A stretch of DNA of 64,000 bases from an uncultured Archaeoglobales archaeon. Lineage in GTDB: Archaea > Halobacteriota > Archaeoglobi > Archaeoglobales > Archaeoglobaceae. Shown piece after piece: positions 4,924 to 28,684 of this stretch. Both the position numbers and the translations under genes were made by a program. The notes under the pieces are model-generated. The model was given only the letters and a program-made list of their open reading frames with translations. It was not told the origin of the DNA and did no database searches. Location: positions 22,688 to 86,687 of the forward strand of contig CBFDVJ010000001.1 in the NCBI GenBank assembly GCA_965613355.1, read 5' to 3'. Each line of letters begins with the position of its first letter. The first letter of the stretch is position 1.

Positions 4924-5469
4924 CTACTCTCCAGCCAACCGATCGTAAATAAGTCTGCCATTGACAATTCTTGCTTCCTTCGAGATTTTATGCTCAACCT
5001 TCCGATCGTTAAGGATGTGAATGACTTTCCATCCTTTCATAGCCAGGTAATCCGAGATAAACTTCCTATGACACCTCCAATAAAGCTTTTCGGCGCACAT
5101 TATGGCAGAGGGTCTCAAAACTGCGATTTCTTGAAGTTCTTCGATCGCCGTTTTGAATTCTTCGGTAAGCATGTAGTCAGCGTAATTCCTGAAGCCCTCA
5201 CTTTTTATTGCCTTGTTGGGAGAATCATCCATTATCTTCTTCCTGTAACCCCCTAAAGTGGGAAACCAGTAATACTCGATTCCCGATTCTGAAAGAATCT
5301 GCCTGAGATACTCCCCTTTGAAGTGGGGAAATTTCGAGGTTGGAAACCTCCTAACATCTATCAGGATTTCAATCTCGTTTCTGATAAGCAGTTCAACAAA
5401 TTCCTCTGCCTTTCTGTTGGAGTGGCCGATCGTGAATATTCTTTTTATTTCTTTTCCCTCTGCCTCCAT
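4924..5469 (-). CDS. DUF488 family protein
   Basis: IFTIGHSNR, LIDVRRFPTS, LGGYR and IMCAEKLYWRCHRKFISD are DUF488 signatures. Confidence 0.9.
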   Translation of the reverse strand: MEAEGKEIKRIFTIGHSNRKAEEFVELLIRNEIEILIDVRRFPTSKFPHFKGEYLRQILSESGIEYYWFPTLGGYRKKIMDDSPNKAIKSEGFRNYADYMLTEEFKTAIEELQEIAVLRPSAIMCAEKLYWRCHRKFISDYLAMKGWKVIHILNDRKVEHKISKEARIVNGRLIYDRLAGE

Positions 5470-5529
5470 CTAATTTATCTTTTTAGTCCTAGGTTTAAAA
5501 TTTCCTTTTAAAATTTCAGTTGGTTCTAG

Positions 5530-6843
5530 TTATCTTGTTCTTCTCAAGGGTATTGCCACTAACATCACCAATGCCACTAAAATTCCCGTCAGAGCGGTGA
5601 GAGATTCAAAACCCGGAATCCTCGGAACTGATTCCGGTTGCTCAGTGGATGTTGAGATTGGAGTTGGAGTTGTTGGAGTTGGAGTTTGCAGGACTGGCTT
5701 TTCTGGTTGGATACTTTTTGCTGCTAAGACATAGATTCCGCTTTTATTAGACATAAAACTTAAAGCAATTTCAGAATCACTTGTATTGTAGTAATCAGAC
5801 GTCCTTTCAATTGTTTCCTCACCTAACCGATAAAAGGCAAGGGTTGATACATTAATTTGCTTGGATAATTCTTTAATTTCTTCATCGGATAGATTTGATT
5901 CCATATAAATGTACCCGGCCTCGGTATAGACATCAGGTATTACCGTTGCATATATCGAATCGCTAAGCATGACCAATCCTTCAGGCAACGAATTCAATCT
6001 CACGATTGACAACTGAAATTCCTCGCCAGAAACGTTGAGGTTTTTAAGAGAATAGAGAGATCCATGAGATGCCTGATCTCGGATAAAAACTCCCTTCTCT
6101 GCGATACTCCCAGAAACTATGAATCCGTATTCGGAAAAAGTGGAAAGAAACGCACTATCTTCGCTATCTTCTCCATCTCCTCTATCTTCTCTTCCTACAA
6201 ACACTACATCTTTTACTCTATTTGCCATACCACCGGAAAGCTTAACACCTTTCTGAAATCCTTGGAGGATGAGGTTGGAGAGCAAGATTTTTCTTGAGGC
6301 CGAAACTTCAATTCCCACTTCATCTCCCTCCAGAAAGCTGTCCTTGAGCTTTATAGAGGTGGAATGTTCCACCGTTACACCTACTGCACATCCTTTGATT
6401 TCCAACCTTTGAAGGGTAATATTCATACTTTCGGTTATCTTTATGGCTTCCATATTGTCTTGGAAGACGCAGTTCTTAACATCCAAATCACCAGAATATA
6501 AAATCTCCAGCCCCGTTGATCCGTTGATGATGCGCATACCTTCAATCACAACATTCGGCGTAGAGATAACCTGAATTGTAGGAAGCAATCGGATTTTAGG
6601 CTCAAGAGTTGTTTTCTCACCTCCTACAATATTTACAGACTTTTCTATCTTCAAATTCTCACGATAAGTTCCCGGAGCTATCAAAATCGTATCTCCCTCT
6701 TTCGAGGCGTTGATTGCATCCTGAATGTTGGAAAAATCACATTCCTCGCACACTTGAATTGCGTTTGCGTTAGCAGATGACGCTAACAGAGCAAGTACGA
6801 GAAGTATAGAGAATATCACTAGGGCTTTTTTTAAAGATCCCAT
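5530..6843 (-). CDS. Cell-surface protein: signal peptide, NosD/CASH-type beta-helix, beta-sandwich, Thr/Pro linker, PGF-CTERM sorting signal
   Basis: Hydrophobic N-terminus; SNIQDAINASKEGDTILIAPGTYRENL helix cap; C-terminus IPGFESLTALTGILVALVMLVAIPLRRTR (PGF + TM + basic tail). Confidence 0.85.
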   Translation of the reverse strand: MGSLKKALVIFSILLVLALLASSANANAIQVCEECDFSNIQDAINASKEGDTILIAPGTYRENLKIEKSVNIVGGEKTTLEPKIRLLPTIQVISTPNVVIEGMRIINGSTGLEILYSGDLDVKNCVFQDNMEAIKITESMNITLQRLEIKGCAVGVTVEHSTSIKLKDSFLEGDEVGIEVSASRKILLSNLILQGFQKGVKLSGGMANRVKDVVFVGREDRGDGEDSEDSAFLSTFSEYGFIVSGSIAEKGVFIRDQASHGSLYSLKNLNVSGEEFQLSIVRLNSLPEGLVMLSDSIYATVIPDVYTEAGYIYMESNLSDEEIKELSKQINVSTLAFYRLGEETIERTSDYYNTSDSEIALSFMSNKSGIYVLAAKSIQPEKPVLQTPTPTTPTPISTSTEQPESVPRIPGFESLTALTGILVALVMLVAIPLRRTR

Positions 6844-9800
6844 TACCTTTTCACCACCTTGATCTCAATATGACCGCTTATCTCCTGTCTCACGGATTTG
6901 GAGTTACTTCTCGAACTGCATGAGTAAGAGCGAGTGGAGGAGAAGTCTCTACTGCTTTCATGATGATAATCTCCCACAACCTCCTGCCATCTATCTTTAC
7001 CTGTTTTTTTGAGAATTAGGAGACCTGGTTTCACTTCGTAGTAGGGTACGGAGACTCTCTGCTTCTCAGCATAACCGGGATAAGAGCAACTAGCACCATC
7101 TCGAGGATTTGTTCCTGTATCACCATCATAAATGCAAACGTCGACAAAAGTGCTCGTTCCTTCTCCGAGAGATGAAGTAGAAACGTCTGTTTCAGTTCCT
7201 TTCATCAAAAATACTGGCCACTGAATGGGATCTATTGCCAACACCAAGTCTCCGTTACTAGTCTCCCACAAGAGCCAAGTTCTTTCATTGGAGACTCTCG
7301 ATGAAAGGGAAGTATCCTCTACCTTCACATGGCTACTCCCAGAGATACCACTGTTGCCACTGCAGCCATCGGTGTAACTTCCGCTATGAGTTCTAGAGTA
7401 GCTACTCTGGTATTTGTAAGCGTAACTGGCTGTAATTCTCTCTTTTCCTGTGCTTTCCTTCCAGTAAGTTTTTGATGTGAAGTGGATGGAAGAACGTGCA
7501 GACATCGTCCACTCCGCATCAGACGAGCCTGAATCCGCTGAATTGTAACATTCCTCCCCTATAGGACAGCAGAGATGCGGACAGTTCGATGTGGCAGAGG
7601 TTGTTCCGGATTCCTGATATAGAGAATTTCTTGTCCACGTGATGAACAGGACGAACTCTTTTTCCTTAACCTCGATGAAAGCCTCATCCCTCGGAGCTTC
7701 TGTATATCCAAGTCCTTGATATACTGCTGGTATCTTTACCAAACCTTCTTTCTTGCCTGCAACGAATTTAATTGTCGCTCTACCATTTTCACCGGTTATC
7801 GGGTTGTTGTGAGCATCAATAATGCCTAAAGGGAATACCTTTCCATCTAACAAAGCAAACTTCTCTATCAAGATCATCTTGTCAGCTAGGGGTGTCCTCT
7901 TACCGCCCAGCTCCTCTTTGTAGACGAAAATATGCAAGAGTGTTTGTTGTTTTGGTAGTAATTCGTCCTTCTCGGGCTTTATCTCAATTCCAATTCCTGC
8001 TATCTTAACCATCGCTAATCTGTGGATTTTCTTGCCACCTCTCGCCTTTGCAAACACTTCTATCTTATCCACACCAGCTCTAACGCCTTTGGATTGCATG
8101 AGGAAGTATTCTGCCTTAGCGACTCCTAAAGCGTCGGTTGTCGAGAAAACGTAACCGTAATCGCCCTTCCCCTCCGCTTTAACATAACCTCGATCGGTGA
8201 CCTCTTTGAAGTAAACCTTCGCTCCTTCGATAGCTTTACCTCTGCAGTCCCTTACAACTGCTTTGATTACCACTTTATCCTTTCCTTCCTCGAATGTGAG
8301 AGTTTCAGGATTAAGTGTTAAAAGCAAAGAGGGATCTCTTGGCGGTTTAGGATTGTTAACCTCCCACGTTTCGATGATCGATTTCAAATCACCCTGTGAG
8401 TTAATCAGATCATTTAAAATTGAGATATCATCACCTCTAGCTGTAACACCACTCACCCTAACGACATTATCTACATCGAGAAGCACAAGATTCATCAGGT
8501 TCGTGTCTCCAAGCATAACGTAGTTGAATCGAAGGATGTATTCTGCATTAACCATCTGTCGAATTCTTGATAGATCTGCTTCATCAGGATTCTCGGCCAA
8601 GAAATTCTCTTGCTCGAGCAGAGCACTCTTCACATCAACATCACTCGTTATAATCACTCCCGGAGACTTCGCCTGAATAAGCTCCTTAACCTTAATTGAG
8701 AAATATCTTTTGAGGGTTTCGGGAGTGTCGCCGGGATAGGTTTGCAGCAATTTTTCAACCGCCTCATCTCCCAGTTCTACAAAGAGGTATACTTTTGGTT
8801 TTGAACATCCCTCTTCCCCTTGGAACAAATCTGCATTTAGTATGCAGTTTCCTTCGCTTTCACTTAAGTTTAAGACTGAAGTGCCCTGAAGGTTAAGGCT
8901 AAAGGATGTTACACCGATGTCAGCAAGATCAATCTCTCCTGTGTAGCGAAGTGGGAGATTTCTTGTCCTATTTTCGCATCCAAGAGCTAGTTTAACCATA
9001 GGGATGTAGTATATCTTTCCATCGCTCGTATAGGCTTCGCCAGCAAGATAGTATTTACTTGGAGAAGCTGTTATTGAATAACCAAAGTGGTTTCCTTTAA
9101 ATTCAAACTCATTAGTTTCGAGGGTATAGGAGTCAATAAGTCTTATTCTGCTTAGGACGAAGGGAGAGGTGTCGTTGTCCGTTGCATTTCTTAGATACGT
9201 TCCTTTTATTGTTGATATGCCACAAACCTCAAATGTCTGGATGTCCTCTGCAACCAGCACCCCATCATCGTTGAAAAGGTTGCTTCTTAGGATGTAAGTG
9301 CCCTCTTTCCAATTACTGTTTATAAATTCTTCAAAAGCTATGAAGTAATCAGATTCTATGGGTTTGTATCGCTTACCTTCAGCCTTTTCAGAGAGCGTTG
9401 GTAGATGTACGACATTGCTTTCGGGATCCTCCATTGATGACAAAAGTGTCCCGTTTTGAGTTGAGTTTCCCGTGAGCATGTGTTCTATTATGACTTCCTG
9501 TCCATTGCTGAAGATTTCTCTGTTTATGTAGAGCTTTACTGAGGTTTGATTATTGTAGTAAAGCTTGTCCGTGGAGAGTGAGACCGTATTGAATCCATCT
9601 GCTAATCCATCTGCTAATCCATCTGCTATCTTGCCAACCAAAATGTAGGTTCCTGCTGAAAAGCTGTTGTTGAATTTAATCGAAGATGGCAAACGCCCAT
9701 AGTAGTTCGTTCTTAAGTAGTATGAATCTATCGGTTTTTTGGTTTCACTCCAGTCTGGATAGTAGAGTTTTTTGCCATCCGGGGTTAGAAGGTAGATGTA

Positions 9801-12800
9801 TGCTTTGTAATCTTTGCTTCCATTTCCGTTGATGATTCCGTCTATCTTTAGGTAAGTTGTCATGGTTTCGTTTTCAGAAATGGAGTTGTCTGAGGTGAAT
9901 GCCTTTATCTGTGGGAAGCTGAAGGGGAGTGATGGAATTAGGGAGACATTTTTGATTTCCCACTGCCTTGTTCCTCTATCCCATGCATTCTCCGAGACGA
10001 ATGAAATTATGTTTTCCACATCTGGAGTGATGTTTTCCAAGATAGGAATTTCGTAGGTTTGGTAATTTGAATTTAGTTGGATGGTTGTAACAAGGTTTCC
10101 CGAAAGGTTGTTATAGCTCTGGATTCCGTTTCTATGGAATTTGTTGAGGTAGATGTCTATTTTACCTCCACCCTTTGCTTCAAAGGTCAAGGTATAATCC
10201 GTTTTCCTTCCAAAGAAGGAGAAGGCCACGTCATCTGTAAACGAGGTCATAGTTGTGTTCAATTTAAGCAATTCACCTAAGGTGAGAGGTATTATTTTGA
10301 ACTTTACCTCTCCATTTCCTTTTATTGCATAGTAATCCTCTCCATTGACCATTATTCTGTGCTCTCCAAGAGATAACCTTTCGATTTCTACAGTTCCTGC
10401 GGTTGCATAAGGCTTCAATGAGATGGCAGTAGGTGAGGAATTATCTACGATATAGGAAGCTCTTCTCAAAGGATATTGAGAGGTAAAGGCTAGGGTTAGG
10501 GATCTTTCGGTATAGGATTTGCTTTTAGGAGTGATTTCAATGCTAAACTGGGGTTCTTTAACCTCCTCTAAAACTGGGATTCCTCCAGCCCCTGTTCCAG
10601 CGGTTCCTCCACCTCCAGTAGTCCCAGAAATAACGTTTATTGAGAAGTTAACTACCGTGAAGTTGAGATTTCCGGCCGTATCGTTTACGTAGACAATTAA
10701 CGTGTAATCTCCGTTTGATAAACCTGTTATCGTTGTGTTTGGAGTGAAGGTTACGTTTGACGCCGAGTTTAAAGAGTACCACCATCCGTCTATATCTGGA
10801 TCGGGTGAGTGAACTTTTAGATAAACGTAGTTCGCTGAATAGGTCTTGCCTTCTTCAGGTGAAATTACACCGATGAATGGAGCTGTATAGTCTGGGGTGA
10901 CGTTTGTGAGGGGTAGATAGTCACCGCCAGCTATGTTTCCGCTTGAGTTGTAGGGCAGAAGCGTATCTCCTAAACCATCTCCTCCAGCCGTGTCAGCTCC
11001 CGTATAATCATGCCAGTAGTTCCCTCCCAAATATGAGCCATTGATTATGTTCGTGCCTGGAGTTTTCGAGATGTTCCAGAAGTTGTTGCCGTTATCGTAG
11101 GCGTTTATGGAGTTGTTGAAGTAGTTATTGTAGATTAGGTTGCTGTTTGAGGAAGAGAGGTAGATTCCGTATCTCTGACCTCCAATCCAGATTCCTTGCT
11201 GCGGGTTCGCTAGGCGAAGGATGTGATTCGTTTGAATCGTGTTCGAATTTGAGTTTGAAAAGTGGAATCCATATCCGCCCTGGCATGGATTGGTTGTTGG
11301 AGGGAGATAGAAGCTCGGCCCATTGTCCGTTATGTTTGAATCTAGAATCGTGTTGTCGCTAGATTCGTCGAGTTTTATTCCGTAGCACCAGTTCTTTTCC
11401 ACCTTGGTGTTTTCGATGGTAGTATTTTCAGATCCCCCGAGATACAAGCCTGAACCGTAATTGGAGTTGCCATTATCAGAGAAATCTGAGTTAGTGATTG
11501 TGACATTGCTGGAATAGTAAATCGCCAGTCCTGTAAGGTAATTGGTAAAAGCGTTTGTTGAATCAATGGTAGAATCAGAAGTGTTGTAAAGGATTATCCC
11601 ATGTGAGTTTGAGAATAAGCCGATGTTTCTGACTATCACATTTTTGCAGTTAATGCAAGCGAAAAATCCTATCGGTGGTTGAGCAGATTGGTCGAATATT
11701 GCATTAGAGGCGTTTTTGATGTAGTAAATTGCACCACCGCTGACGTTGTTTGACGTATCTATGTCAAAATCGAAGTCCCGGAATTGGGGAGTAGTGTAAA
11801 CTTCCCCTGGGTCAAAATAGAAATCGTAGGTGTTACCGAGCATTCTATTCTCTCTGAGCGTTAAGTTGGTTGAATAGGTGTAAGGAGATGATGAGTCGAT
11901 TTTGATTCCCGCATACTTGAATTTTACAGTGTTGTTGTAGATTAGGCAGTCGCTCGCATGGTTTATTTTTATTCCTGCATCTTCATCTTGGACAGGTGTA
12001 TCCCCTACAATCAGGTTGTTTTGTATAACGCAGCCTCCCGAGTCAAACCTTATCCCTCCATAGCCCGAGAATGTGTTGTTGGAAACAGTATTTCCCTCAG
12101 CATATCTCTTTATCCACACTGCCGGCATAGAAGATGTAAAATTCTTCACGAATGTGTTGTCATAGATCAAATTGTTACCAGCGTTTCTATAACTCAAACC
12201 TTCAATTGTTATGTAGCTGTTGTAAGTTCCCTCTGCAAAAGTATTGAGAGTTATGTTGTTGTAACTTGAACCCTCAATTCGGAGTTGAGATGCTATGAAG
12301 GTGTTCTCTGCTATCAGATTTCTATCTGAACCATGTAGATAGCCCTTTACGAGGAATATTCCGCTTCCATTGAATGTATTGTTCCTTATGATGTTATCTG
12401 TCGACTCATGATCGGTTATCTGGATACAACTCATACCGGAAACCAGATAGGTTGTATATCCCACCTTTATACCAGCCTCAGGTATTGAGCCGAGAGGGCA
12501 TGGGCCAGGATAGGCTGAATTGTTGATGTAGAAACCTTGAACAACGTTACCATTGGAGGCGAGGGTGAAACCACTACCTTTCTGGTTGGCATCTATGACG
12601 GGATTACCAATCCCCGTTATGTTCAGGGTTTTATTTACAAAAACGTTCTCAACGTAGGTTCCATTACAAACGATAATCGTGTCTCCATCCATCGAAACAT
12701 TTACAGCATCCTGAACTTTAGTGAAATTTGCCGGGCAGTCAGCCAGATCATCATCAACATACCACGTTTTTGGATCTCTAAGGGTAGTGAAATTTCTGAT

Positions 12801-14030
12801 TGAGCTGTTGGAGTAAAGGCTTGTGTTGTCTGCCTTATACGAGAAAGCTGAGTAGTAGTAGGTTGTGTTTGGAGATAAACCGGATAAAGTTATGGAAGGA
12901 TTCTGCGTGTAGTTATCCCAATCTCGCTCAGGATACATAGTTTCGCCGCCAGATAGGATTACAGACTCATTCATATAGAGAGTCTGGGTATTGTTATCCC
13001 ATTCAGACCATTCCGGTGACGATAGATCACTATTGAGGCTGTAGAGAACCCTGTTAGCTGATAAAACATTCGTATACCAGCTAATTGTTATGCTGGTATT
13101 CGTTAGATCGCTCTCCTGGATGTTGCTTATGACCGGAGGTTGTTCTGTCTCGAAAAGCATCGGATAGTAATCTAAAGGCAAATTCGAACTTTCACCTTCA
13201 CCACACCAGAGGGTGGAGACCTGATATGGCATATCACCGATTCCATCGTTGTTTGAATCGATTCCTGAATAATCATCCCAGTAGTTGCCGGTGTAATTCG
13301 AGTAAACATCGCCTTGGTAGCTGTACTGCCTTATTTCAGTCGAGTTCCAATTGTTATCCCCGCAATCGATCGCGTTGTAGGTGTTGTTGATAAACCGATT
13401 GAGGTAGAAAACGTTTGTAGAAAAATCAGCCTGAATGCCGGTATCGCTATCCCTTATCGTGTTGTTGTATATCGTGTTGTTGTAAACGGCGTTGGTATTG
13501 GCGTAGAATTCAATTCCAACAGTGGTGTTATGGATCGTGTTATCGAAAATCACAGCATAGCCCGAATCTTCAAGCTGAATACCATCGTAGGTATTGTAAA
13601 TTACATTGTTTGAGATATTGGCATGATCGGAAGGATTCAGCGAGGCGGGATTTGGTTCTACATCAATCCCATCATCATTGCTTTTCGTTGAGCCACCGGT
13701 GATAGTAAATCCAGATATGGTAACATAACTTGCATGAACCTCAATAACATCCTCGCTCGTGTCGTTTGCTTGGATAATCGTATCCATTGGATTCTGAGAG
13801 AACGATTTGAGCGTTACCGAGATGTTGATATCAATATTCTCCAAATATGTTCCACTGCAAACGACGATCGTGTCTCCATCGCTAGCATTTTTCAAGGCTG
13901 ATGTGATAGTTGGAAAGTAAACATCCCCAGATGTACATGGAGTTGTTTTATTGACTACAAGAACAGCATCAGCACTAGCTGACAGCATTACCACTACACA
14001 GACTATTAGAACTACTTTTACGACATTCAT
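6843..14030 (-). CDS. 2395 aa secreted multidomain protein: two NosD-type beta-helices, FN3-like, Ig-like domains, CsgG/TolB_N-like alpha/beta domain, invasin-type Ig domains, Cys-rich C-terminus; no C-terminal anchor
   Basis: Signal peptide ending SADA; repeated beta-helix coils with GNYW-D-D-G caps; ITISWYTN...LSGLSPNTTYYY FN3 motif; TTDALGVAKAEY and TGENGRATIKF Big_1-like motifs. Confidence 0.85.
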   Translation of the reverse strand: MNVVKVVLIVCVVVMLSASADAVLVVNKTTPCTSGDVYFPTITSALKNASDGDTIVVCSGTYLENIDINISVTLKSFSQNPMDTIIQANDTSEDVIEVHASYVTISGFTITGGSTKSNDDGIDVEPNPASLNPSDHANISNNVIYNTYDGIQLEDSGYAVIFDNTIHNTTVGIEFYANTNAVYNNTIYNNTIRDSDTGIQADFSTNVFYLNRFINNTYNAIDCGDNNWNSTEIRQYSYQGDVYSNYTGNYWDDYSGIDSNNDGIGDMPYQVSTLWCGEGESSNLPLDYYPMLFETEQPPVISNIQESDLTNTSITISWYTNVLSANRVLYSLNSDLSSPEWSEWDNNTQTLYMNESVILSGGETMYPERDWDNYTQNPSITLSGLSPNTTYYYSAFSYKADNTSLYSNSSIRNFTTLRDPKTWYVDDDLADCPANFTKVQDAVNVSMDGDTIIVCNGTYVENVFVNKTLNITGIGNPVIDANQKGSGFTLASNGNVVQGFYINNSAYPGPCPLGSIPEAGIKVGYTTYLVSGMSCIQITDHESTDNIIRNNTFNGSGIFLVKGYLHGSDRNLIAENTFIASQLRIEGSSYNNITLNTFAEGTYNSYITIEGLSYRNAGNNLIYDNTFVKNFTSSMPAVWIKRYAEGNTVSNNTFSGYGGIRFDSGGCVIQNNLIVGDTPVQDEDAGIKINHASDCLIYNNTVKFKYAGIKIDSSSPYTYSTNLTLRENRMLGNTYDFYFDPGEVYTTPQFRDFDFDIDTSNNVSGGAIYYIKNASNAIFDQSAQPPIGFFACINCKNVIVRNIGLFSNSHGIILYNTSDSTIDSTNAFTNYLTGLAIYYSSNVTITNSDFSDNGNSNYGSGLYLGGSENTTIENTKVEKNWCYGIKLDESSDNTILDSNITDNGPSFYLPPTTNPCQGGYGFHFSNSNSNTIQTNHILRLANPQQGIWIGGQRYGIYLSSSNSNLIYNNYFNNSINAYDNGNNFWNISKTPGTNIINGSYLGGNYWHDYTGADTAGGDGLGDTLLPYNSSGNIAGGDYLPLTNVTPDYTAPFIGVISPEEGKTYSANYVYLKVHSPDPDIDGWWYSLNSASNVTFTPNTTITGLSNGDYTLIVYVNDTAGNLNFTVVNFSINVISGTTGGGGTAGTGAGGIPVLEEVKEPQFSIEITPKSKSYTERSLTLAFTSQYPLRRASYIVDNSSPTAISLKPYATAGTVEIERLSLGEHRIMVNGEDYYAIKGNGEVKFKIIPLTLGELLKLNTTMTSFTDDVAFSFFGRKTDYTLTFEAKGGGKIDIYLNKFHRNGIQSYNNLSGNLVTTIQLNSNYQTYEIPILENITPDVENIISFVSENAWDRGTRQWEIKNVSLIPSLPFSFPQIKAFTSDNSISENETMTTYLKIDGIINGNGSKDYKAYIYLLTPDGKKLYYPDWSETKKPIDSYYLRTNYYGRLPSSIKFNNSFSAGTYILVGKIADGLADGLADGFNTVSLSTDKLYYNNQTSVKLYINREIFSNGQEVIIEHMLTGNSTQNGTLLSSMEDPESNVVHLPTLSEKAEGKRYKPIESDYFIAFEEFINSNWKEGTYILRSNLFNDDGVLVAEDIQTFEVCGISTIKGTYLRNATDNDTSPFVLSRIRLIDSYTLETNEFEFKGNHFGYSITASPSKYYLAGEAYTSDGKIYYIPMVKLALGCENRTRNLPLRYTGEIDLADIGVTSFSLNLQGTSVLNLSESEGNCILNADLFQGEEGCSKPKVYLFVELGDEAVEKLLQTYPGDTPETLKRYFSIKVKELIQAKSPGVIITSDVDVKSALLEQENFLAENPDEADLSRIRQMVNAEYILRFNYVMLGDTNLMNLVLLDVDNVVRVSGVTARGDDISILNDLINSQGDLKSIIETWEVNNPKPPRDPSLLLTLNPETLTFEEGKDKVVIKAVVRDCRGKAIEGAKVYFKEVTDRGYVKAEGKGDYGYVFSTTDALGVAKAEYFLMQSKGVRAGVDKIEVFAKARGGKKIHRLAMVKIAGIGIEIKPEKDELLPKQQTLLHIFVYKEELGGKRTPLADKMILIEKFALLDGKVFPLGIIDAHNNPITGENGRATIKFVAGKKEGLVKIPAVYQGLGYTEAPRDEAFIEVKEKEFVLFITWTRNSLYQESGTTSATSNCPHLCCPIGEECYNSADSGSSDAEWTMSARSSIHFTSKTYWKESTGKERITASYAYKYQSSYSRTHSGSYTDGCSGNSGISGSSHVKVEDTSLSSRVSNERTWLLWETSNGDLVLAIDPIQWPVFLMKGTETDVSTSSLGEGTSTFVDVCIYDGDTGTNPRDGASCSYPGYAEKQRVSVPYYEVKPGLLILKKTGKDRWQEVVGDYHHESSRDFSSTRSYSCSSRSNSKSVRQEISGHIEIKVVKR
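9592..9627. repeat. In-frame 12 bp tandem repeat x3 (AATCCATCTGCT)
   Basis: Three exact copies, encoding ADGLADGLADG. Confidence 0.95.
13233..13289. repeat. 57 bp exact repeat, copy 1 (copy 2 at 26062-26118)
   Basis: Direct comparison shows identical sequence; encodes [19 protein letters not shown] in both giant genes. Confidence 0.95.
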
Positions 14031-14083
14031 TAATTAACCTTCCTCCTTTACGAATTTCTTCGATGAATCAGACTTTGTTTGAA

Positions 14084-14174
14084 AGTAGAATAGACTAGGT
14101 TGTCTGGTAAGAACAATTCTTTAGAGGAAATTTAAATTTTTCGTTGTAAATTTTATTTTAATAATTATTATTAG
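14084..14174 (-). promoter_or_regulatory. Duplicated promoter/leader upstream of the 2395 aa gene
   Basis: 76/91 identical, ungapped, to 28594-28684. On the minus strand it contains CGAAAAATTTAAAT (BRE/TATA-like). Confidence 0.8.
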
Positions 14175-17400: not shown

Positions 17401-20400
17401 AAGTGAGTAAGCGATCTCTGCATGCTTTATAACCTCACTGAAGTTGCCCGGATTTTCCGGCAAGCTTTCATTATTCAACTTCGTCCAAACTGCTATGAAT
17501 CGATTGTCTAAGGTGTATGCAAGATCAGGCTTGAAATCAGATGTGGTGTCATTGACAATTGGTTTCGGCTCGCTCCATCCACCGCTTTCGTTAAAGGTGT
17601 AATATATGTCGAATGCCCGAGTTAGATTCTTAGATGGATTATCAGCTGAATAAACAATCATCTCCTCGTTATCAATCCCGAGGGCAAGCTTCGGGTCGGC
17701 ATCAGGATATGTGTTTTTCACGATAATGTATTCCTGAGTGGGGGAACTGTGGATTAACTCTCCAGCCAGAGTATTGTACTCTGCAGTTAGATAATCTCTA
17801 TCAGAAAGTCTCCAGTACTCCGGTTTCGAAGCTGGTTCAGTCCAGCAATTTCCATTCCAAAGATCGCATATAAACTTTCTGCCCCAGTGATCTGAGTAGA
17901 ACAAGAAGTGCCAATCCACCCTTATCAAGACTCCGGCGCGAAGGGAAGTGATTGAGAAGTCGTAATTCCTATCAAGCTCAGCACCCATTCCAACGTTCGC
18001 TCCTACCGTAACCTCAACACTTGCTATGACAACACTGGCACCACCACTAGCTTCACCCCAAATATCCACGTCAGCGGTTGCATTGTAGAACTTCAGTTCA
18101 CCGCTCTCCGTCCTTTGCACAATTCCAAAGCTCACTCTTACATCCATTGTTACCCCAGCCTTAATGACCACAAAATCCCATTCAGTCAGGGGGATATCCT
18201 GAACGTCAACGATCAGATTCCAGTCAACTTCATCCAAGTATAAAGTATTACTAGAGGGTTTGTATATTGCAATTCTTTGAGCGCAGATTCCGGCAAGGGT
18301 TTGCTCTCCAAAGGTGTAATAAATTCCTCCACCATAACTCATTCTCCCCCTTCCTGTAAAAGAGCTGAATGTAGCGTTTTCTTCAAAGAAGATTCCACAT
18401 GCTCCTGGATTTGAGCAGAACGTACCCTCCTGTGGCGTATGTTTGCCGGATGGTATGTAAGTAGTTACACCGTAATGCCCGCCTACCCATGGTACTCCTG
18501 AAGGAACATCAAAGCCTGGTATTTTGTCAATAACCTCCATGATCGGCTCGATTATACCGATAATATCCAAGGCAGAGTCTGTAATTTTTGTTACGTCTAT
18601 AATCACATCCGTAACCACCAACACCGTATGAACTCCAGTCAAAACATCTCCAACTTCATCAATAACATCTTTAACATCATCTGGAAGCGGAATATCGCCT
18701 CTATATTCAATACCAGAGCCATTGAAATAGCAGATGTAAGCTTTATTATCTTTATAAAATACAACATCACCCCTCGATTTATCGTAGGAGACACCTACAC
18801 CCTGATATACAAATCTGAGTAAACTATCCTTATATGCCGCTGAAAGGGATATGGATCCGTCGTCATAATTGAAGGAGACCTCGTAATCAGACGTGTTGAA
18901 GCTCGCTTCTATATCAACTCCATCGCTGTAGTTAAAGCCGACTTCACCTTTATCATACTCTGCTTCAATTTCGATTTCACCGCTATATCTTATGCTTCCA
19001 GCGTAATCATCCAAATCGATAGAGACTCCCACATCAGGTGTGTCCAGTGAGAGCCTGTGTGCATCAAAATCCCAATAGAAAGTATAACCACTATATACAA
19101 ATTCCACATGATCCTCAAATACGTAGATTTTGGTTACCTTTTTCAGATCGACGTAGTTCTGGCCCTCAATGTACTTCTCACCTCTGACAACTTGCGGAAA
19201 CCTCGGCAAGCCTTTTGGCTGGAGTCTGTGAAAGAGTGTCTCAGCTTTAACTGTCGTCGTTTGTTCAGAAACCGCCTCAATCAAAAACATGCTAGCTCCA
19301 AGAGGCAAGTCTTCCATGTTGAATCCTTCATGGGTCGTTTGAGTGTATTTATACGAGGGATCATCAGGATAGTAATACCAAACACATTCCGGATCGGGAT
19401 GTCCCTGAATGCAGAACTTCTTCGTTATCGCTTCTTGAGTTGGAGGCGTTACTGATACCCTCAGTGGATCTAGTTCTCCATCCCATCCAACGCTAACCTC
19501 CAATCCATTTTCAATACCGTATCCTTTCAAGAAGTACTTAGTGTACATCGGATTTATTTCGAGAATATCCGGATACCTTGCAAGGCTGTTAAAGGTTCTG
19601 TGAGTTCTCACTGCTCTTTCTGAATAGGGGTCATTCGTCTCAGCCTGTATAGTTGCATTTCCAACTTGATTGAATGCATAGTCAAAGATTGCAGTTCCAT
19701 TCTCATTTGTGAATGCAATCGGTGGGAAGATCACTCCGTTTTCCTCCTCTGAAATCTCGGAGAAGTTAACTTGCATACTTGAAACTGAGATCGGATTTCC
19801 GTTGCAGTCAGTTATTTGAGCAAAGCCTACGAGGTGTTGGTTTTCATACGATATTGCTCCCATCTCGAGTCCAAAGCAAGTGAGAGGAGGTGAGGTGAGA
19901 GGATACATGTCCTGATTATTTCCTCCGGTTATGTTATAGGGACTATCGCATATTCCATTGTTGTCCGAATCATAACATCCCTCAGAGGGTTCATCGTAAT
20001 CACTCCAGTAATTGCCTCTTGAGTCATTGTACCAAAGGTAGAGGGATCTTCCGTCATCCAATGCCGAATATTCGTTATTTAAGAAGCTATTGTTCTCAAC
20101 CACTATAGATTCCATAGCTTCAGCTGGAAGTAAAGCTGCTGTATGGTTAAGCCTAACTCCTCTATAATTCTCATTTAGAATGTTCTGAGAAATGTTAACA
20201 AAAGTGCAGTCCACCAGACTTATACCTGCATCGCTGTACGAGGCTGTATTTTTGATAATTTTGTTGAAATTGGAGTTTTTCATATGAATTGCATCGTTTT
20301 TACAGTTTATTACACTATTATCCTCAATTGTGTTGCCATCGGAGTGATTGAGATAAATCCCATGGCTTGTAGCATTGAAGAGGTAGTTACCCTTAACTAA

Positions 20401-23400
20401 ATTGTCTCTGGATTCGTTCAACCAGATAAGATACCATCCCTGGACGATGTTGTTGTTTGTGATGGTTGTATTTGTAACTTCATCGAGCAGCGTTATTCCA
20501 GCTTCTTTGTTGTAGAGAAGGTTGTTTTCAGTTATGTTGTTGTAATCTGATGAGAAAATGGCAATGCCGTAATAGCTGCCAAATACGGAATTGTTCATTA
20601 TAAGGTTGTTGTTTGCTTGATAGTCAACATATATTCCCGCCCCTGAGCTTGGATACAATTCGTTGTTTCTGATAACGTTGTTCCGCGATTCCAAGACTGA
20701 GATGCCCGCATATGACGAGTTGACCAAATAATTATCCTCTATCACACTATTCATAGAATAATCGAATATGATACCAGTTTGGAGATAATTGCCTATTCTA
20801 TTATTCCTAACTCTAACCTCATCGGAATTGGAAACATTTATTCCATGCCCAGATGATGAGAGTTCGTTTTCTTCTACCGTAATGTTCTCAGAGTTGAGGA
20901 TTGTTACAATATTCCCCCCATATCTTGCAGAGAAATTGTTTCTTAAAATCAGTGAGTTCTTGATATTGCTTAGATAAAGCCCACGATAGGAATACATTGG
21001 AGAGATGTTATTTGAAGCTATAAGGACCGAGTCACCTCCCGAAATATATATTCCTGTTACTACAGTATCTCCTACGATGGTGTTGTTCGTAATGAGGCTA
21101 TCACTTAATCCACTAAACTCAATTGCGACATAAAATGTTGTATTAAAGTAATTCTCACTTATGACGTTTCCAGTGTTATATGTTTCTATTCCTATCGACA
21201 GACCCCATCCTTGGGATAAGAACCGGTTATTTGAGATATTGGAATTGTAAAGATAACCTGTGCGTATCCCATAACCGTTGTCTCTAAAAATGCAGTTGGA
21301 GATTTCGATATTATCCATGACTCCCCAGTATCCGAATATACCGTCAGTTGATGCGCCCTCTATCGTAATTCCAGTTATGTTTACTTTGTTTCTCAAAGAA
21401 AATACCTTATCACCCATAGCATGAACAATCGTATCGACTGGATTTCTCGAGAAGGATGCGATTTTCTCCAAATTCTTGTCTATTGTGACACTCTCATTGT
21501 ATTGCCCTGGACAGATGATAATCGAGTCTCCGCTGTTTGCAGCATCTACAGCTTCACTTATTGTATGATGATGGGTAATACCCTTAACACAAATACCTCT
21601 GTCCGGCTTGTAAACCACCCTTATCGGCTTGTTTGTCCCCATTATGGCATAAGTTCCACTGGAATTTTGAAGATCAACGTGTGTGAAGACGGCCTTATCA
21701 GCGGGATAAACAACATTTGGCCAGGAGTTAACGGGAAGTCTCCAGTTTCCATCCACGAAGTTGTAGAGTGCTAGAGTATCTTCAATAACCGAAGTTATAT
21801 CTCTGTCTTCATAACTCAAAGTTAAATCAAGATATCCACCCTCACACACCGGATTGAGTTCCAGATAGACTCCAATATTTTGAATGTACTCAAGGCTGTC
21901 CAGAATGGGTTCTGCCTCAGCTATAGCATAGCAGTTTCCAACAAAACTAGCTTTAATATCATTTAGAGATACATTCCAGAAGAGTTCCCTTGATAAACTC
22001 TGAATTGAGACAAAATCCGATGCGTTAAGATGAATCGTTGTGAAGGCATTATCTTCAGTATTTTTGAGCTTTATACCTACCTTCGAGTCAATAACATTAA
22101 TGTTCTCGAATTCATTATGAGAACTATTCTGGACTTTGATGCCCGTATTGGAGTTTGCTATCTCTACATCTCCAAATTCATTGTAATTCGAGGAGGTAAG
22201 ATTAATCGCATCGAAGGTGTCGGAGGAAGCAATATTATGGAAATCACAATTAAAAGAATTTTCGAGGTTGATCGAGCTGTATTCGTGCGTGGACTCCAGA
22301 TCTGACACCGATTGTCTCAAACTACCATTAACATATATCCCGTTTTTATTTCCAGAAGTCCTTATAGTTGAAAAAGAACTCTCATACCCGCCGATATCCT
22401 TAATCCCATACACGTTGTTCTCAGAGGTAAGATCGTAAACATTAGCGAAGGAGACATCATACAAAAACAGCCCTGAGCCTCCCTTTGAGTTATTTGAGAG
22501 TACAAGATTTCTCAGTGTGACTTGAGTAGAGTTAATTATCGTTATTTTTCCGAGATTACTAACATTTTCAGCCACGAGGGTACGGTTTGCTATCCAAATA
22601 TTCTTCGCATTTACATAATGGAGATATGGTTCTCCGTTAACAGTATTTCCAATTATATCATTGTAATAGCTCTCGATCCCATTGAAGAAGATTCCCGACC
22701 CCATAGGATTAATTATTGAGTTGGAGATCAAAGTAAAGGTATTTTTAACGTTGCTGGAGAGTCTTATTCCATTCTCCTGGGGATTAATAATAGTGTTATT
22801 CGCGATCAGTAAATGTCCTGGGGATGTGTCTTTGGATGTTAAAGATTTTACCGCTATGGCTATTCCGTTGTCTGAGAATGTGTTATTATCGATCACATTA
22901 CCTACGCTAACAGAAGGATATCCAAAATAATAGTAGATGCCGTAGGTTGAGTGGAGAATCTCATTATTACTTATCAAATTTCCTGTGCTTGGTTCAATAA
23001 AAGCGATTGCTTCAATCCCCTTTTCGGATGTATCTATCAGATTGTCCAAGATTGTTATATTCTTAGATATATACAGGGAAATACCCTTGCTCGAGAGTTC
23101 AATAACATTATTGCTTATAGTGATGTTGTTGCATTCCTGTTTAAAGAAAACGGGAGGTGAGAGATCAATCCCGATTTTGTGATGATAGAGTGAATTTCCA
23201 TCGATGATGCTGTCCGTCACATTGACGAAAGTTATCCCATAGCGATATCCAGTGAAGGGTGTGAATGGAGTGAACCCTCCAATTCCTCCCGAGCCTTCAG
23301 AATTCAATGCATTATCCCAATCAAGGGTATTATTTCTAATTACAATGTTAGTGGCATCCTCAACAAAAATGATTCTTTCAGTTCCTCCATAGAACTTGAA

Positions 23401-26400
23401 TCCTTCAACGGTTACATTGTCAGAAGTTATATTCATTCTACCAACTATCTCGGCGTTTGAGCCATAAGCTTCGAGTGTGAGAGGTTTATCAATCGCCAGA
23501 ATTTCAGTATATCTTCCATCACAAACTACTATTGTGTCACCACCGCCTGCTGCATAAATCGCATCAGAAATATTGTTGAAATAAAGCGGTGCGGAAAGGC
23601 ATGGAGTTGATGATGCTGGATAAACCACGAGATCCACTCGAGTAATGTTTACTAGAGTAAGAGGTAAATAATCCACGTTGTCATCGTTAAGGAAGTAACT
23701 CGAATCGCAGAAGCTATCTTGATCTGAATTTGGACATGTTTGACTGAATCCCGAATGATCGGTAGCCCAGTAGTTTCCACCAATTTCTGAACCACCAACT
23801 ATATTCGTCCCATTCATTTTCGTTACATTCCAAGAATTGACATAAAACGTGTCTCCAAAGATTGCGTTGTTCTCATTCCTGAAGAAGTTGTCATAAATGG
23901 TATTGTTGCCCGAAGTTGAGAGCTTTATACCATAATTGTTGTCGGTTACAGTGTTTCTGTAAAGTGTATTGAAATCTGAGAGGTAAAGGTCAAATCCTAT
24001 GGTGTTCAGGGTTAGAGTATTGTTAGACAGGATGTTTTCTGAGGATAGATCGATGTGTATTCCAAAGTAGTTTGAGTTGGCGTTGTTTAGATCGATGAGG
24101 TTGTTTATGCTTGAACCTGAGATACTAATTCCATTATAGTTGTCTTTTGCTAAGTTACCGATGACCGAATTGCCTGTAGAATTATAAAGGAAAATTCCGA
24201 TATCGTTGAATTCTGCTGTGTTGTTTATTAATACGTTGTTCTCAGAGCTGTAAACCGAGATTCCATAATCATCATTCAAGGTTGCGGTGTTGTTTTTGAT
24301 CGTATTATAGGTGCTATGAGAAGATAACGAGATTCCATCGTTACCATTCGAGCTTACGGTATTATCAACTGTGGTGATATAACTGGAATTATAAAGTCTG
24401 ATTCCCGTTCCCAAATTTTCTATTGCAATATTATTTGTAATCAGACAATTCTGAGAGTTGCGCAAAACGATTCCATACATTGTGTTTGAGCTTACCGTAT
24501 CGTTCTCAATTCTGCAGTCCTTTACATTTCTGTAATAAATTCCATCCCACCACCCAGTAACAGTCACATTCCTCACCGTCACATTTAAGGTATTGGAGGA
24601 GTAAATGGCTGAACTTCCCAAACTGTTAATTCCATCGATTATATGTCCGTTTCCGTCCAAAATTACATCGTTTGCGGTAATATTAACGCACTTGCTTGCT
24701 GAACTATCCAAGATATCATTCTGAAGGACATAGTAGCCAGGAGTATCGATAACTGTGCAAGAATAGATCCTAAAACCTTCGGCCTTTTTACCCTTCAGAG
24801 GGAGGTAATCTACATTTCCTAGAGAGAGAGTATAGCTTTCATCGCAAAAGCCGTCCAAGTTTGCATCAACACAAATCTGGCTGAAACCTGTGCCATCTGG
24901 TTTAGCCCAGTAGTTTCCGCCCAAATAACTTCCACCAATTATGTTAACCCCTTGGATTTTGCTGACATTCCATGTATTCGAACCTCCAACATTTGCGTTG
25001 ACTGGGTTGTAGAAGTAGTTGTTGTAGATTAGATTGGAGAACGAAGAGGTTTGGGCTATGGTAATTCCGAAGTTGTTTAGGGTTACGGTATTGTTTGAGA
25101 TGGTGTTGTTCCAATTGTTGTATCCCAAATAAATTCCGTAGAAGTTCGAGGTTGCTGTGTTGTTCGTAAAGGTGTTGTGACTTGAATAATCTAGCCAGAA
25201 ACCTCCCTGTCCATTTGAGCTGGCAGTGTTGTTCTCTATTAGGCTGGAGATCAATGAAAGTACAAAACCATAATTCCCGTTTGAGTTAGCAGTATTGTTT
25301 GTTATGGTGGCACTACCCTCTACATAAATCCCCCTATAGTTCGAATTTGCGATATTATTTGATATTAAGCCACCAAGTTCTGAATAAAGCCCATAATTGG
25401 TATTGTAGCTCAGATTGCAGTTCAGAATGCTGTTATCAAGGGAATCTTCGATCCAGATTCCATCATAGTTAGAAATTGCGGAGACGTTGGAGATTATGTT
25501 GCTGTTGCTGGAATACACCAAATTCATTGCCTTTCCGTTTGAATGCAGAAAACTATTCGATATCGTGCAGTAACTTGAATTTAGGAGGCGTATCCCTTTA
25601 CTAAACGATGAAACTTCGAGGTTTGTTACCCTTATATGATCAGAATTTGAGATGGAAATTCCTTGATTGTTACTCCCTGACGAGGTTGCACTTACATTCT
25701 CGATCCTTCCATCGCTTACATAAACAAAACCTATCCCCTTTTCTTTAACAACTAAATTTAGATCTTTCACAGTCACATTAGTTAAAGTTTCACCGGCATA
25801 AACGAAAACAGCATAACCGCTGGATTGCAAAGTTATTGTATGATTGTTTCCATCGAAGTTCACATCGCTAGAGTTAATATAAATACAGTTCGGGGAGGAG
25901 GTGGTGATGTCAGAGATAAGGGAGTAAACTCCTGGCTGACTTATAATGGTGCAGTCACCAACATTTCCCGGTGGCAGTACGGTTTGATTGACCGAAAGCA
26001 TAGGATAGTAGTCTAAAGAAGATATTAACCACGGGCCATTTTGTGGGATGTCATAGGGAACATCACCGATTCCATCGTTGTTTGAATCGATTCCTGAATA
26101 ATCATCCCAGTAGTTGCCCGTGAAATTGTAGTATTGGGAGTTGCTAAAGTTGTAGTACATCCTCTCAGTCGAATTCCAGTGGTTGTTGCCAGAGTCATCG
26201 ACGGCATTCTGGAAGTTGTTGGTGAAGTTGTTGAGGTAGATCGTGTTATTATAAGAGAGAGGATAGATTATACCAATCGATTCGAATTGGGTGTATCCCC
26301 AACCCTTAATGTGTATCCCATATAAACTGTTTGAAATAAAGTTGTTTCTAATCGTGTTATTGAGGGAGCTTGAAACTATCTCTATCCCTACTGAGTTACC

Positions 26401-28374
26401 ACTAAGGCTGTTGTTCTCCACAACAGAATTACTTGTTCCATAGAAGAGAACTCCATGACTGGCTTTATTTAGTACTGAATCTCTCACAACAATGTCGTTG
26501 CAGTTTACGCAAAAAACAGCTCCAGCGTTGGAGGCTGAGTTAATCTCTACACCAGATTCACCTATAAGGTAATAAAGCTTCTTGCCATCCATCAGATTTG
26601 ACGTGTCTATGTCATGCACTATGTCTGAAACATCTTGCCAATCCTCAATCCAGAAGCCATGGGTATTTCCATTCATTAAATTGTTTCTAAGCGTTGTGTT
26701 TGAGGCATATTCGAAATAGATACCATATTCGTTGTTTTCAACCGAATTTCCAATTAAAGAGCAAGAATCCGAATCGTAAAGCTTGATTCCGTACATACTA
26801 TTATCAAAGGAGTGACACTCTACTATGGTTATATTGTACGAAGAATCGAGGTAGATCCCACCTCTACCCGAGTTTCCCGTCACATTAAATATCTCAGAGT
26901 CGCTTAAGTATTCGAATCTCACACCGTAATACCAATCTGTCACCGTAACGTTCTTAACAGAAATATTGGAGAGAGAAGATGAATACCCCTCTGCGTAGAT
27001 GCCATAGATGCCATTAACATCTCCACCATTTATTGCATGACCATTTCCCTCAAGGGTAACATCACTTGATTCTATCTTTATGCAATGATCGTTTCCTGCA
27101 GAAGATATGTCTTGGCTAAGGATATAAACACCGGGAGAATTTATAATCGTGCAAGAATCTACTAGAACTCCAGATGGCTGAACAAGCGTTAATGGAAGGA
27201 AATCTATGTTTTCAGAAGCTAAAGTAAGGCTAGAATCGCAGATTCCATCTCCATCGCTATCACTGCATGTCTGGCTGAAACCAGTGCCATCTGGCTTAGC
27301 CCAGTAGTTTCCGCCCAAATAACTTCCACCAGCTATATTTGTTCCCAATTGCTTGGTTGTATTCCAAGTGTTTGGATACGCTGCAGAAATCTCGAAGTTG
27401 TCTATGTTGTTGAAATAGTTGTTAAAAATGAAATTATCCTGTGAATCGTAGATGTAGATCCCATAATTTGTATTGGAATCTATAGTGTTGTTTACTATCG
27501 TGTTACCCTTCGAATGGTCATATAGCATAATTCCTTCCGAATTCTCATTTATCGTACTATCAGTCAGGTTGTTGCTTTCACTTCCTTCAAAATAAATCCC
27601 ATAATTATCATTCAAAACGGCAGTATTATTCTCAATTGTGTTGTTAGACGCATAGTATAGCCATATTCCGTGAGTGCTAAGGCTAGCCGTGTTATCAATT
27701 ACCGTGTTATTGTCAGACGTATCCAGAGTAATCGCTCCATCTCCATTGCAGTGTCTAACTTTATTCGCTATCACGATATTGAAATTGGAATTGAAAAGGT
27801 AAATTCCATAAGCTGATGTCGAATTTACTGTGTTGTTTTCTATTCGCCCATTATCAACAAAATCATAAGAAATCCCATAACTCCAATCTGAAAGGACAAA
27901 GTTCTTCACAGTCACATTAGTTACCATTGAAGTTGAGTTATAAACCCGAATACCAAAATGACTACCGATCCCGTCAACTACATGCCCTCTACCATCCAAA
28001 ATAACATCACTGGAAGTTATTCCTATACAGTTGGAATCTGCATCGATTATATCTTGAGTAAGAACATAAACGCCAGGAGAGTCTATAACCGTGCACGAAT
28101 CTATTTCACCTCCCGATGGTGGTTGTGTGGTCTCAGCAGCAACCTTAATAACCCATACATCACTACCTCCGGCATCGTAGGATTGAGTAGATCCACTAAT
28201 TATGTACCCACCGTCTGACGTTTGCTGTACTGAACTTGCCTTATCCCAACCAGCCCCTCCGAATGTTTTATTCCATTCTTCATTAGGCGCTTCATTAGCA
28301 TCCGCAAAAGGTATAAGGGTAAATAAGCAACAGACGAGCAAAAATAATAGAACGTATTTTAATCCCAAACTCAT
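14455..28374 (-). CDS. ~4640 aa giant surface protein: six NosD/CASH beta-helix modules, Ig-like, beta-rich region, propeller-like repeats, three CARDB-like domains, Pro/Thr linker, C-terminal TM anchor (alternative start 28392)
   Basis: Uninterrupted 13.9 kb ORF; signal peptide; repeated CTxIxxPGxYxLxxDI caps; DLxI...VxNxG...ExNETNN CARDB motifs; [20 protein letters not shown] plus basic tail. Confidence 0.9.
14556..14763 (-). repeat. Pro/Thr-rich low-complexity linker coding repeat
   Basis: [13 protein letters not shown] occurs twice just before the TM helix. Confidence 0.9.
24876..24937. repeat. 62 bp near-exact repeat, copy 1 (copy 2 at 27270-27331)
   Basis: 60/62 identical; encodes [20 protein letters not shown]. 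Confidence 0.95.
26062..26118. repeat. 57 bp exact repeat, copy 2
   Basis: Identical to 13233-13289. Confidence 0.95.
27270..27331. repeat. 62 bp near-exact repeat, copy 2
   Basis: 60/62 identical to 24876-24937. Confidence 0.95.
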
Positions 28375-28378
28375 GTTA

Positions 28379-28561
28379 TCAACTCCTACCATTCCGATAG
28401 GTTAACAAACCGTTAAACACAGCATTTGGTTTAATTGCTCGGTTTGCTAGATGATTATTCAGCTCAGTACACCCCGAATTAGGAAAAGAGAACAATTCAA
28501 GGACTACAAGAGTATAGAGTTCACTCTCTCGAGGCTCCATGCCACTAATACAAGGAGACAT
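28379..28561 (-). CDS. Possible 60 aa upstream ORF or gene remnant in the leader of the giant gene
   Basis: GGGGGT SD before ATG 28561; stop is 4 nt before ATG 28374; no recognisable motif. Confidence 0.35.
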
Positions 28562-28593
28562 TTTACCCCCTTTTAATCAGGCGTTGTTATCAG

Positions 28594-28684
28594 AGTAGAA
28601 TAGACTAGGTTGCCTGATAAGAAAAGTCAACAATTAAAAATTTAAATTTTTCGTTGTAAATTTTATCTTGATAATTATTATTAG
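28594..28684 (-). promoter_or_regulatory. Duplicated promoter/leader upstream of the 4645 aa gene
   Basis: 76/91 identical to 14084-14174, with the same BRE/TATA-like core. Confidence 0.8.

Follow-up and report, generated by a model that had tools for sequence, protein, structure and literature searches.

Tandem giant surface-protein cassettes in Archaeoglobus: a probable strain-variable island remodelled between promoter repeats

How does an archaeal locus come to hold one order of elements twice, with alignable flanks around giant genes that share almost nothing as DNA? The question is raised by a window (the whole stretch of DNA that was analysed, 64,000 nucleotides (nt) long) from a draft Archaeoglobus genome, G000 (2.3 Mb, 105 contigs, 97.6% complete). 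Downstream of an Lrp/AsnC-family regulator gene, a promoter block (P1) precedes G1, a gene for a predicted surface protein of 4645 amino acids (aa), and the remnant of a DUF488 gene; a second promoter copy (P2) then precedes G2 (2395 aa), G3 (437 aa) and an intact DUF488 gene. A first-pass annotation had proposed a dedicated diversification system, its observations of the sequence being confirmed here and its interpretation only partly supported. The locus is probably a flexible, strain-variable island in which two allelic giant surface-protein cassettes stand side by side and are remodelled by recombination, rather than a new dedicated system.

Tandem and single-cassette forms of the island

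The evidence that carries this reading comes from other strains of the species. In the metagenome contig L039 (Ga0190363_1004363) and in L071 (a Logan contig from SRR7051320), the Lrp gene is joined directly to G2 via the promoter, with no G1 between them. Across 6817 nt of G2 and P2, L039 and the window share 99.15% identity and differ by 58 single-nucleotide polymorphisms (SNPs); the G2 of L071 is 98.6% identical in its encoded protein. The promoter in both contigs is a hybrid, carrying P1 variants upstream of the invariant ATAAAATTTACAACGAAAAATTTAAATTT and being identical to P2 downstream of it. Because the hybrid switches from P1 to P2 at this point, the tandem and single forms differ by one crossover in a 29-nt core, spanning 14.5 kb. 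The comparison indicates that recombination between the promoter repeats is how strains gain or lose the G1 cassette, and this variation among strains of one species is the new result.

Four genomes from other Archaeoglobus species (G001 to G004) place the island in a wider frame. G004, a metagenome-assembled genome (MAG) from the Guaymas Basin (Archaeoglobus sp. GB_MAG3_049), carries a single cassette at the same site, in the order TauE, Lrp, promoter, a 2424-aa protein, a 450-aa protein, an Rce1-like protein, DUF488 and B3_4. Its 2424-aa protein is the orthologue of G2 (52% amino acid identity, collinear) and its 450-aa protein that of G3. Counted by cassettes, G001, G002 and G003 have none, G004, L039 and L071 have one each, and the window has two, as do L043 and L044. 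The island position is fixed between an acetoacetate decarboxylase (ADC) gene and the DUF488-B3_4 pair. DUF488 stands in G001, G002 and G003 with neither a giant gene nor Lrp beside it, its adjacency to B3_4 was confirmed in G001, G003 and G004, and in G003 the ADC gene directly abuts DUF488. Since these relatives have DUF488 without giant genes and G003 joins ADC to DUF488, DUF488-B3_4 is an old core synteny beside which the island was inserted.

In the window, all elements from the radical-SAM gene through the intact DUF488 gene lie on the minus strand. Beginning at the ADC gene and then in order of transcription, with the convergent B3_4 gene last, the features are:

32385-33134: ADC gene, ADC249, a conserved core gene on the island's other side
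30693-32093, minus: gene for a radical-SAM/B12 protein, part of the island relative to G003
30307-30552, minus: open reading frame (ORF) of 81 aa, part of the island relative to G003
29465-30310, minus: TauE exporter gene, part of the island relative to G003
28709-29275, minus: Lrp/AsnC-family regulator with a Cys-rich tail (Pfam), left-hand neighbour of the cassettes
28575-28684, minus: P1, promoter copy 1, with the 29-nt exact core at 28638-28666 and a 23-nt motif at 28594-28616
28382-28561, minus: G1 leader of about 180 nt, with an orphan 60-codon ORF inside
14455-28392, minus: G1, 4645-aa surface protein, cargo of cassette 1 (translation, Pfam)
14213-14359, minus: DUF488 relic, three collinear alignment blocks against the intact copy
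14175-14212, minus: junction between the cassettes, read from alignments and sequence
14066-14174, minus: P2, promoter copy 2, with the 29-nt exact core at 14128-14156 and the 23-nt motif at 14084-14106
6843-14030, minus: G2, 2395-aa secreted multi-beta-helix protein, cargo of cassette 2 (translation, Pfam)
5530-6843, minus: G3, 437-aa beta-helix protein (translation; Pfam NosD/Beta_helix)
4924-5469, minus: intact DUF488, 181 aa (Pfam PF04343), right-hand flank of the island
4090-4770, plus: B3_4 gene, conserved, adjoining DUF488 and convergent with it

Each element was found where the first-pass annotation had placed it, and the order of promoter, giant gene or genes and DUF488 does occur twice. 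The contrast it drew between alignable flanks and dissimilar giant genes also held, the flanks being 82-97% identical and the cargo unalignable as DNA. Self-BLAST of the region from 4 to 30 kb returned four off-diagonal matches only, namely the promoter pair, an 81-nt patch common to G1 and G2 and two repeats internal to G1.

The edges of the island bear marks of exchange. Six of the nine SNPs that separate the Lrp gene from that of L039 fall in its last 31 nt, next to the promoter. At the opposite flank, the DUF488 gene of G000 has 70% nucleotide identity to that of G003, against a background of 83-87%, and 80% to that of G004, against a background of 76-80%. Together, the SNP cluster and the discordant relatedness of DUF488 match the boundary signature of island exchange by homologous recombination (PMC4033161). 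A mobile-element origin was considered and rejected: no integrase was found at the island, and the two candidate features nearby do not abut it. One is a DDE transposase fragment (189 aa; 650-1219, minus strand) 4 kb beyond the right flank; the other is tRNA-Lys(TTT) (35647-35722, plus strand), the only tRNA, which is separated from the island by a PCMT gene.

Promoter repeats, flanks and cargo

P1 and P2 are 82% identical over 114 nt, a significant likeness (E 9e-24 in a search of the region, 5.7e-24 in a search of all 2.3 Mb of the genome). Besides the exactly identical 29-nt core, the copies contain an AT-rich upstream block, a core resembling a BRE (transcription factor B recognition element) and TATA box, and the conserved 23-nt motif. 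A fuzzy search of G000 (up to 5 mismatches in the core and up to 4 in the 23-nt 5′ motif) recovered no copy beyond P1 and P2, and with two copies only in its own genome the block is neither a dispersed repeat nor a regulon motif. Scanning public collections with the promoter core gave one match among genome contigs (G004) and one among metagenome contigs (L039). P1, P2 and the G004 promoter have in common, almost without change, a 47-nt block made up of the AT-rich segment and, after it, the BRE/TATA-like core CGAAA/TTTAAAT. As the surrounding DNA is just 65-80% identical between G000 and G004, this near-invariance argues for functional constraint on the block, and hence for similar transcriptional control of both cassettes. 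Both are likely transcribed from the conserved promoter and thus co-regulated. T-rich tracts lie immediately 3′ of the G1 stop codon, and P2 probably drives G2-G3 independently.

Between the cassettes, the junction opens with a filler of about 22 nt and continues with a homologue of the sequence just past the Lrp stop codon. The leader of G1 has no counterpart in P2 or G004. Its 60-codon ORF is preceded by a Shine-Dalgarno-like GGGGGT and stops 4 nt before ATG 28374, the likely true start of G1 (the annotated ORF begins at 28392), while the ATG of the leader ORF itself aligns with the giant-gene start codon of G004. An assembly in ENA carries an in-frame GTA insertion at 28507, within this ORF. 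The ORF has no Pfam or NCBIfam match and no homologue among 5.8 billion proteins, and its standing as a gene is unproven. An Rfam scan of 1-34 kb found no RNA element.

The intact DUF488 gene matches PF04343 with an E-value of 8.6e-31 (107.5 bits against a cut-off of 22.2) and, the relic apart, is single-copy in the genome. Three blocks of the relic (14359-14340, 14337-14312 and 14286-14213) match the intact copy at 5483-5464, 5446-5421 and 4959-4895, respectively. The first 11 codons are kept, with the ribosome-binding site and the ATG in the first block and codons 4-11 in the second; the third block has the last 12 or so codons and roughly 45 nt of the 3′ flank, and the interior has lost 461 nt. 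Of 2000 shuffles the highest scored 35, whereas the best block reaches 42, so that the DUF488 likeness is significant as well; the second block's score of 33 was reached once in 2000. These features mark the copy as a non-functional DUF488 relic. Its 5′ part resembles the island-type allele of G000 and G004 and not the alleles of G001-G003. Elsewhere in archaea, DUF488 occurs fused to ParB-CTPase/HTH (helix-turn-helix) domains, pointing to a cytoplasmic role (bioRxiv 10.1101/2025.10.10.680097). DUF488 would then be a cytoplasmic bystander of the island.

The cargo has the makings of surface proteins, in line with the adhesin or cell-surface role suggested by the first-pass annotation: signal peptides, transmembrane or PGF-type tails, Pro/Thr linkers, beta-helix and CARDB domains and numerous sequons were recovered. 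G1 opens with a signal peptide and closes with a long Pro/Thr linker and a C-terminal transmembrane anchor; between them lie beta-helix modules, four of type A and two of type B, as well as three CARDB domains and a sialidase-like beta-propeller. The type-A modules are about 400 aa each and start at aa 100, 414, 814 and 1212; their duplication is reflected in a DNA repeat inside G1 (24865-24945 and 27259-27339, 88% identity, spacing 2394 nt). G2 has a signal peptide and no membrane anchor. The start of G3 overlaps the G2 stop codon; its product has a signal peptide and a Pro/Thr linker and ends in a PGF motif, a transmembrane segment and the basic tail RRTR. N-glycosylation sequons number 126 in G1 and 63 in G2. 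G1 would thus anchor itself, and the anchorless G2 would be paired with the tail-anchored G3. From this architecture, G1, G2 and G3 are inferred to form surface fibres for adhesion or interaction with carbohydrates.

The beta-helix assignment rests on Pfam NosD/Beta_helix repeats (E 6.5e-218 in G1 and 2e-60 in G2), and these generic repeats match where the full-length NosD family does not. NosD proper was rejected for G3, the one protein scored in this way, which reaches 48 bits against the TIGR04247 cut-off of 300, and no nos genes occur among the neighbours. The propeller of G1 (aa 3540-3950, window 16543-17775) is a structure prediction with a mean pLDDT (predicted local distance difference test) of 71.6 and a Foldseek match to 8gn6 (E 2e-8; template modelling (TM) score 0.44). 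The domain is common to more than 1000 large proteins (E < 1e-10 in a library of 1.8 billion representatives), and no Pfam model matches it here. The prediction supports a sialidase-like fold and not catalytic activity. Searching the PDB by sequence, with the portions of G1 and G2 that lie outside the beta-helices as queries, returned nothing useful.

The tail of G3, at 5530-5620, has the PGF-transmembrane-RRTR pattern by eye, but no PF18204 match at E ≤ 0.01; the G3 orthologue of G004 scores 16.3 bits for PGF-CTERM against a cut-off of 18.8. For archaeosortase, neither TIGR04125 nor PF09721 was matched in the 97.6%-complete genome, with TIGR04125 matching Haloferax and Methanosarcina as controls. 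On these results G3 is not assigned to PGF-CTERM/archaeosortase A sorting. In G004, a gene for an Rce1/CPBP-type intramembrane protease (L030, 11294-12061) lies between the G3 orthologue and DUF488. This gene is missing at the locus in the window, the rest of G000 not having been searched for one. The G004 protease might be the tail-processing enzyme for G3-type proteins.

The proteins G1 and G2 come from separate families, and each has its own orthologues in other contexts. Outside a single patch they cannot be aligned as DNA, and within beta-helix modules their proteins are 27-40% identical. The patch (13224-13304 in G2 and 26053-26133 in G1) is 81 nt long and 91% identical, with 57 nt exact. 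The G2 orthologue of G004 differs at 9 of the 57 exact positions yet encodes a nearly identical peptide, and for this reason the patch is read as a short gene-conversion tract rather than as the outcome of selection on the protein. The first-pass annotation had spoken of exact DNA patches between the giant genes; an exchange of DNA is borne out, though in one tract only. The motif of the patch is native to the G2 family, which suggests, not decisively, a conversion from G2 to G1.

A diversification by shuffling of beta-helix modules, also proposed at first, did not stand up to comparison. Eight orthologues of G2, 2321-2435 aa long and about 50% identical to it, run collinear with it from end to end. 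For G1, collinearity with the nearest homologue extends across some 3500 aa, and G1 homologues differ in how many N-terminal modules they have. In the G2-family members examined, a G3-like gene follows, often with overlapping stop and start codons. Such partners of anchorless proteins of about 2400 aa are beta-helix proteins of about 400 aa with a tail anchor. Across Archaeoglobaceae and related MAGs the pair recurs in at least five unrelated settings (L072, L074, L075, L077 and L078), and at these five distant loci neither DUF488 nor Lrp is present. These comparisons point to the G2-G3 pair as the truly conserved functional unit of the locus. They also speak against DUF488 as part of the proposed system. 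A lack of DUF488 linkage and an invariant module order, here seen for G2, are what the first-pass annotation itself had named as evidence against its proposal.

The claim that the adjacent Lrp controls the giant genes fared no better. Orthologues of this Lrp (46-88% identity) occur in 58 of 91 genomes of the family, and of 12 further loci that were fetched, 11 lack a giant gene within the flank retrieved, which is short in some. At the twelfth, in G010, the one giant gene nearby is convergent and some 2.5 kb away. Adjacency of Lrp and a giant gene was seen only in this species and G004; regulation of the giant genes by Lrp is possible, with no comparative support. At four of the 12 Lrp orthologue loci (L062, L063, L067 and L069, in other Archaeoglobaceae) a TauE-like exporter is adjacent, with a homologue of the 81-aa ORF in two of them, and the association of Lrp with TauE may be a real conserved pairing. 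G004 carries two copies of Lrp (contigs C29 and C49). In the JGI contig Ga0309840_100200 (L043), a deletion of about 206 nt within Lrp (L043 3074-3283; window 28919-29125) shifts the frame and leaves a 69-aa product with the HTH only; the deletion may be natural, making this a regulator-null variant, or may be an error of assembly.

Origin of the tandem and competing explanations

The observations can be joined as follows. An island between core genes would encode giant, heavily glycosylatable surface proteins built of right-handed beta-helix modules. Two allelic versions of this one locus, P-G1-DUF488 and P-G2-G3-DUF488, would have been joined head to tail, either through a crossover that was unequal or illegitimate, or through Campbell-type integration after an allelic segment had circularised. 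The duplicated promoter and DUF488 flanks would be the homology arms left by the recombination that brought in the second allele, and the joining would have left the filler of about 22 nt, with the 3′ flank of DUF488 on one side of it and, on the other, the sequence ordinarily found just past the stop codon of Lrp. The middle DUF488 copy would later have decayed through the 461-nt deletion. P1 and P2 would now act as direct repeats, a crossover in their 29-nt core removing or adding the 14.5-kb G1 cassette.

Several points weigh against this account. As a substrate for homologous recombination, an exact match of 29 nt is short. Only two contigs, both of them short and perhaps from one sample, show the single-cassette form. 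A donor locus with promoter, G1 and intact DUF488 was not found via the G1 homologues. The nearest of them (L040) is 61-69% identical over the regions compared, its 5′ end is cut off and its downstream genes differ; the homologues P0004 (cut by a contig end), P0005 and P0006 lie in unrelated contexts. The role in surface adhesion and the co-regulation are themselves deduced from sequence. Finally, the change may have run in either direction, and the G1/G2 conversion tract does not separate the two. The downstream half of P1 resembles the G004 promoter, and this likeness slightly favours a two-cassette ancestor that lost G1; the gain of G1 by a single-cassette strain is the possible alternative.

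Other explanations were weighed against the joining of alleles. A tandem duplication of one ancestral cassette in place, with the giant genes diverging afterwards and no allele imported, would account for the single junction and the duplication of both flanks, and the best match between the G1 and G2 proteins (40% over 180 aa) does lie at corresponding module ends. The flanks, however, are 82-97% identical while the cargo is unalignable as DNA. G2 has orthologues of the same length, about 50% identical and with a G3 partner, in unrelated contexts, whereas G1 belongs to a distinct family with a propeller, CARDB domains and an anchor of its own. Because G2 orthologues exist elsewhere and the cargo comes from different families between such similar flanks, the G1/G2 split long predates the flank duplication, which is much the younger event. 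The duplicated locus of the first-pass annotation is therefore upheld for the flanks and not as a simple copying of one cassette: duplication in place is quite unlikely, and the tandem more likely joins two allelic cassettes. The tandem or the single form might also be a chimera of assembly, two strains' alleles being connected via the promoter repeat, given a 105-contig draft, short repeats and metagenome-type assemblies behind both forms. The tandem is nevertheless present at about 100% identity in two more assemblies (JGI Ga0309840_100200 and ENA ERZ27227314 k141_517385), making three in agreement. As these carry it too, and as the path from G1 through relic, filler and P2 to G2 is unique sequence of a kind that repeat collapse cannot yield, the order is not attributed to assembly. 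The exact repeat of 29 nt is shorter than typical assembler k-mers, and the single-cassette contigs, from two datasets, carry SNPs of their own (58 in 6817 nt and the cluster at the 3′ end of Lrp). An artefact is accordingly extremely improbable.

The system proposed by the first-pass annotation, in which promoter, adhesin and DUF488 form a duplicated diversification unit under Lrp control with shuffling of modules, draws on observations that also stand: the element order is present twice, the promoter block is near-invariant in two species, G1 and G2 share the 57-nt exact patch in which the G004 orthologue differs at 9 positions, and the N-terminal module count varies among G1 homologues. Its parts, however, do not travel together. 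DUF488 occurs without giant genes in G001-G003, is absent from the five other G2-G3 loci and, through its fusions elsewhere, points to the cytoplasm. Lrp is found in 58 of 91 genomes, with 11 of the 12 further loci lacking a giant gene in the fetched flank and G010 having a convergent one only. The promoter block was found in this species and at one G004 locus only, and the architecture of G2 is fixed across its eight orthologues. Such a system is very unlikely.

Beyond the preferred reading of a recombining island with two allelic cassettes, a more ambitious version would have the paired promoters selected as an "accordion", populations repeatedly adding and dropping the 14.5-kb giant surface-protein cassette through crossovers in the BRE/TATA core. 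This extension is doubtful. If it were true, each event would also swap the 5′ leader before the remaining gene, and the locus would amount to a recombinational on/off switch for an archaeal surface protein, perhaps under pressure from viruses or attachment. In either case the result is of use for annotation: it corrects a wrong grouping, DUF488 and Lrp being neighbours and not system parts, and it offers the promoter block, G1 and the G2-G3 pair as targets for studies of attachment, biofilm or virus receptors in Archaeoglobus.

Relation to known systems

In bacteria, recombinational phase and antigenic variation switches surface proteins by deletion or duplication between direct repeats. The Archaeoglobus locus is similar in that a predicted surface-protein gene lies between direct repeats, and the interval from repeat to repeat is exactly what separates the strains. 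Both end states occur in nature, but a single crossover product and no dedicated recombinase are seen, where phase variation proper would be recurrent and reversible within a population.

In their building blocks, the giant proteins recall the NosD-like/CASH-type right-handed beta-helix surface proteins of sediment archaea and viruses, which have been proposed as adhesion factors (PMC13452462). Both combine NosD/Beta_helix modules with signal peptides and adhesion-type domains, and both come from Guaymas-type hydrothermal sediment. G2 and G1 are much larger, however, at 2395 and 4645 aa. Unlike the other loci with a G2-G3 pair, this one houses the pair together with a second, unrelated giant gene.

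The closest counterparts are the flexible genomic islands, replacement or additive, which encode exposed cell structures and are exchanged by homologous recombination (Lopez-Perez, Martin-Cuadrado & Rodriguez-Valera 2014, PMC4033161); those of Alteromonas contain giant proteins (PMC3698932). Shared with these islands are the fixed site between core genes, a cargo of very large predicted surface proteins that varies among close strains and species, the lack of an adjacent integrase, the SNP peak at the boundary and a flank gene, DUF488, of discordant ancestry. In contrast to them, two alleles here stand side by side with duplicated flanks and without replacement, the repeat that mediates gain or loss would be the promoter itself, with the crossover in its 29-nt BRE/TATA core, and the host is a hyperthermophilic archaeon. 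The locus is thus probably one more instance of a known feature, the flexible surface-protein island that homologous recombination reshapes. What makes it instructive is the tandem retention of two giant-protein alleles, with the crossover placed in a 29-nt promoter core, which gives a case, at nucleotide resolution, of strain-level change in surface-gene content in a hyperthermophilic archaeon.

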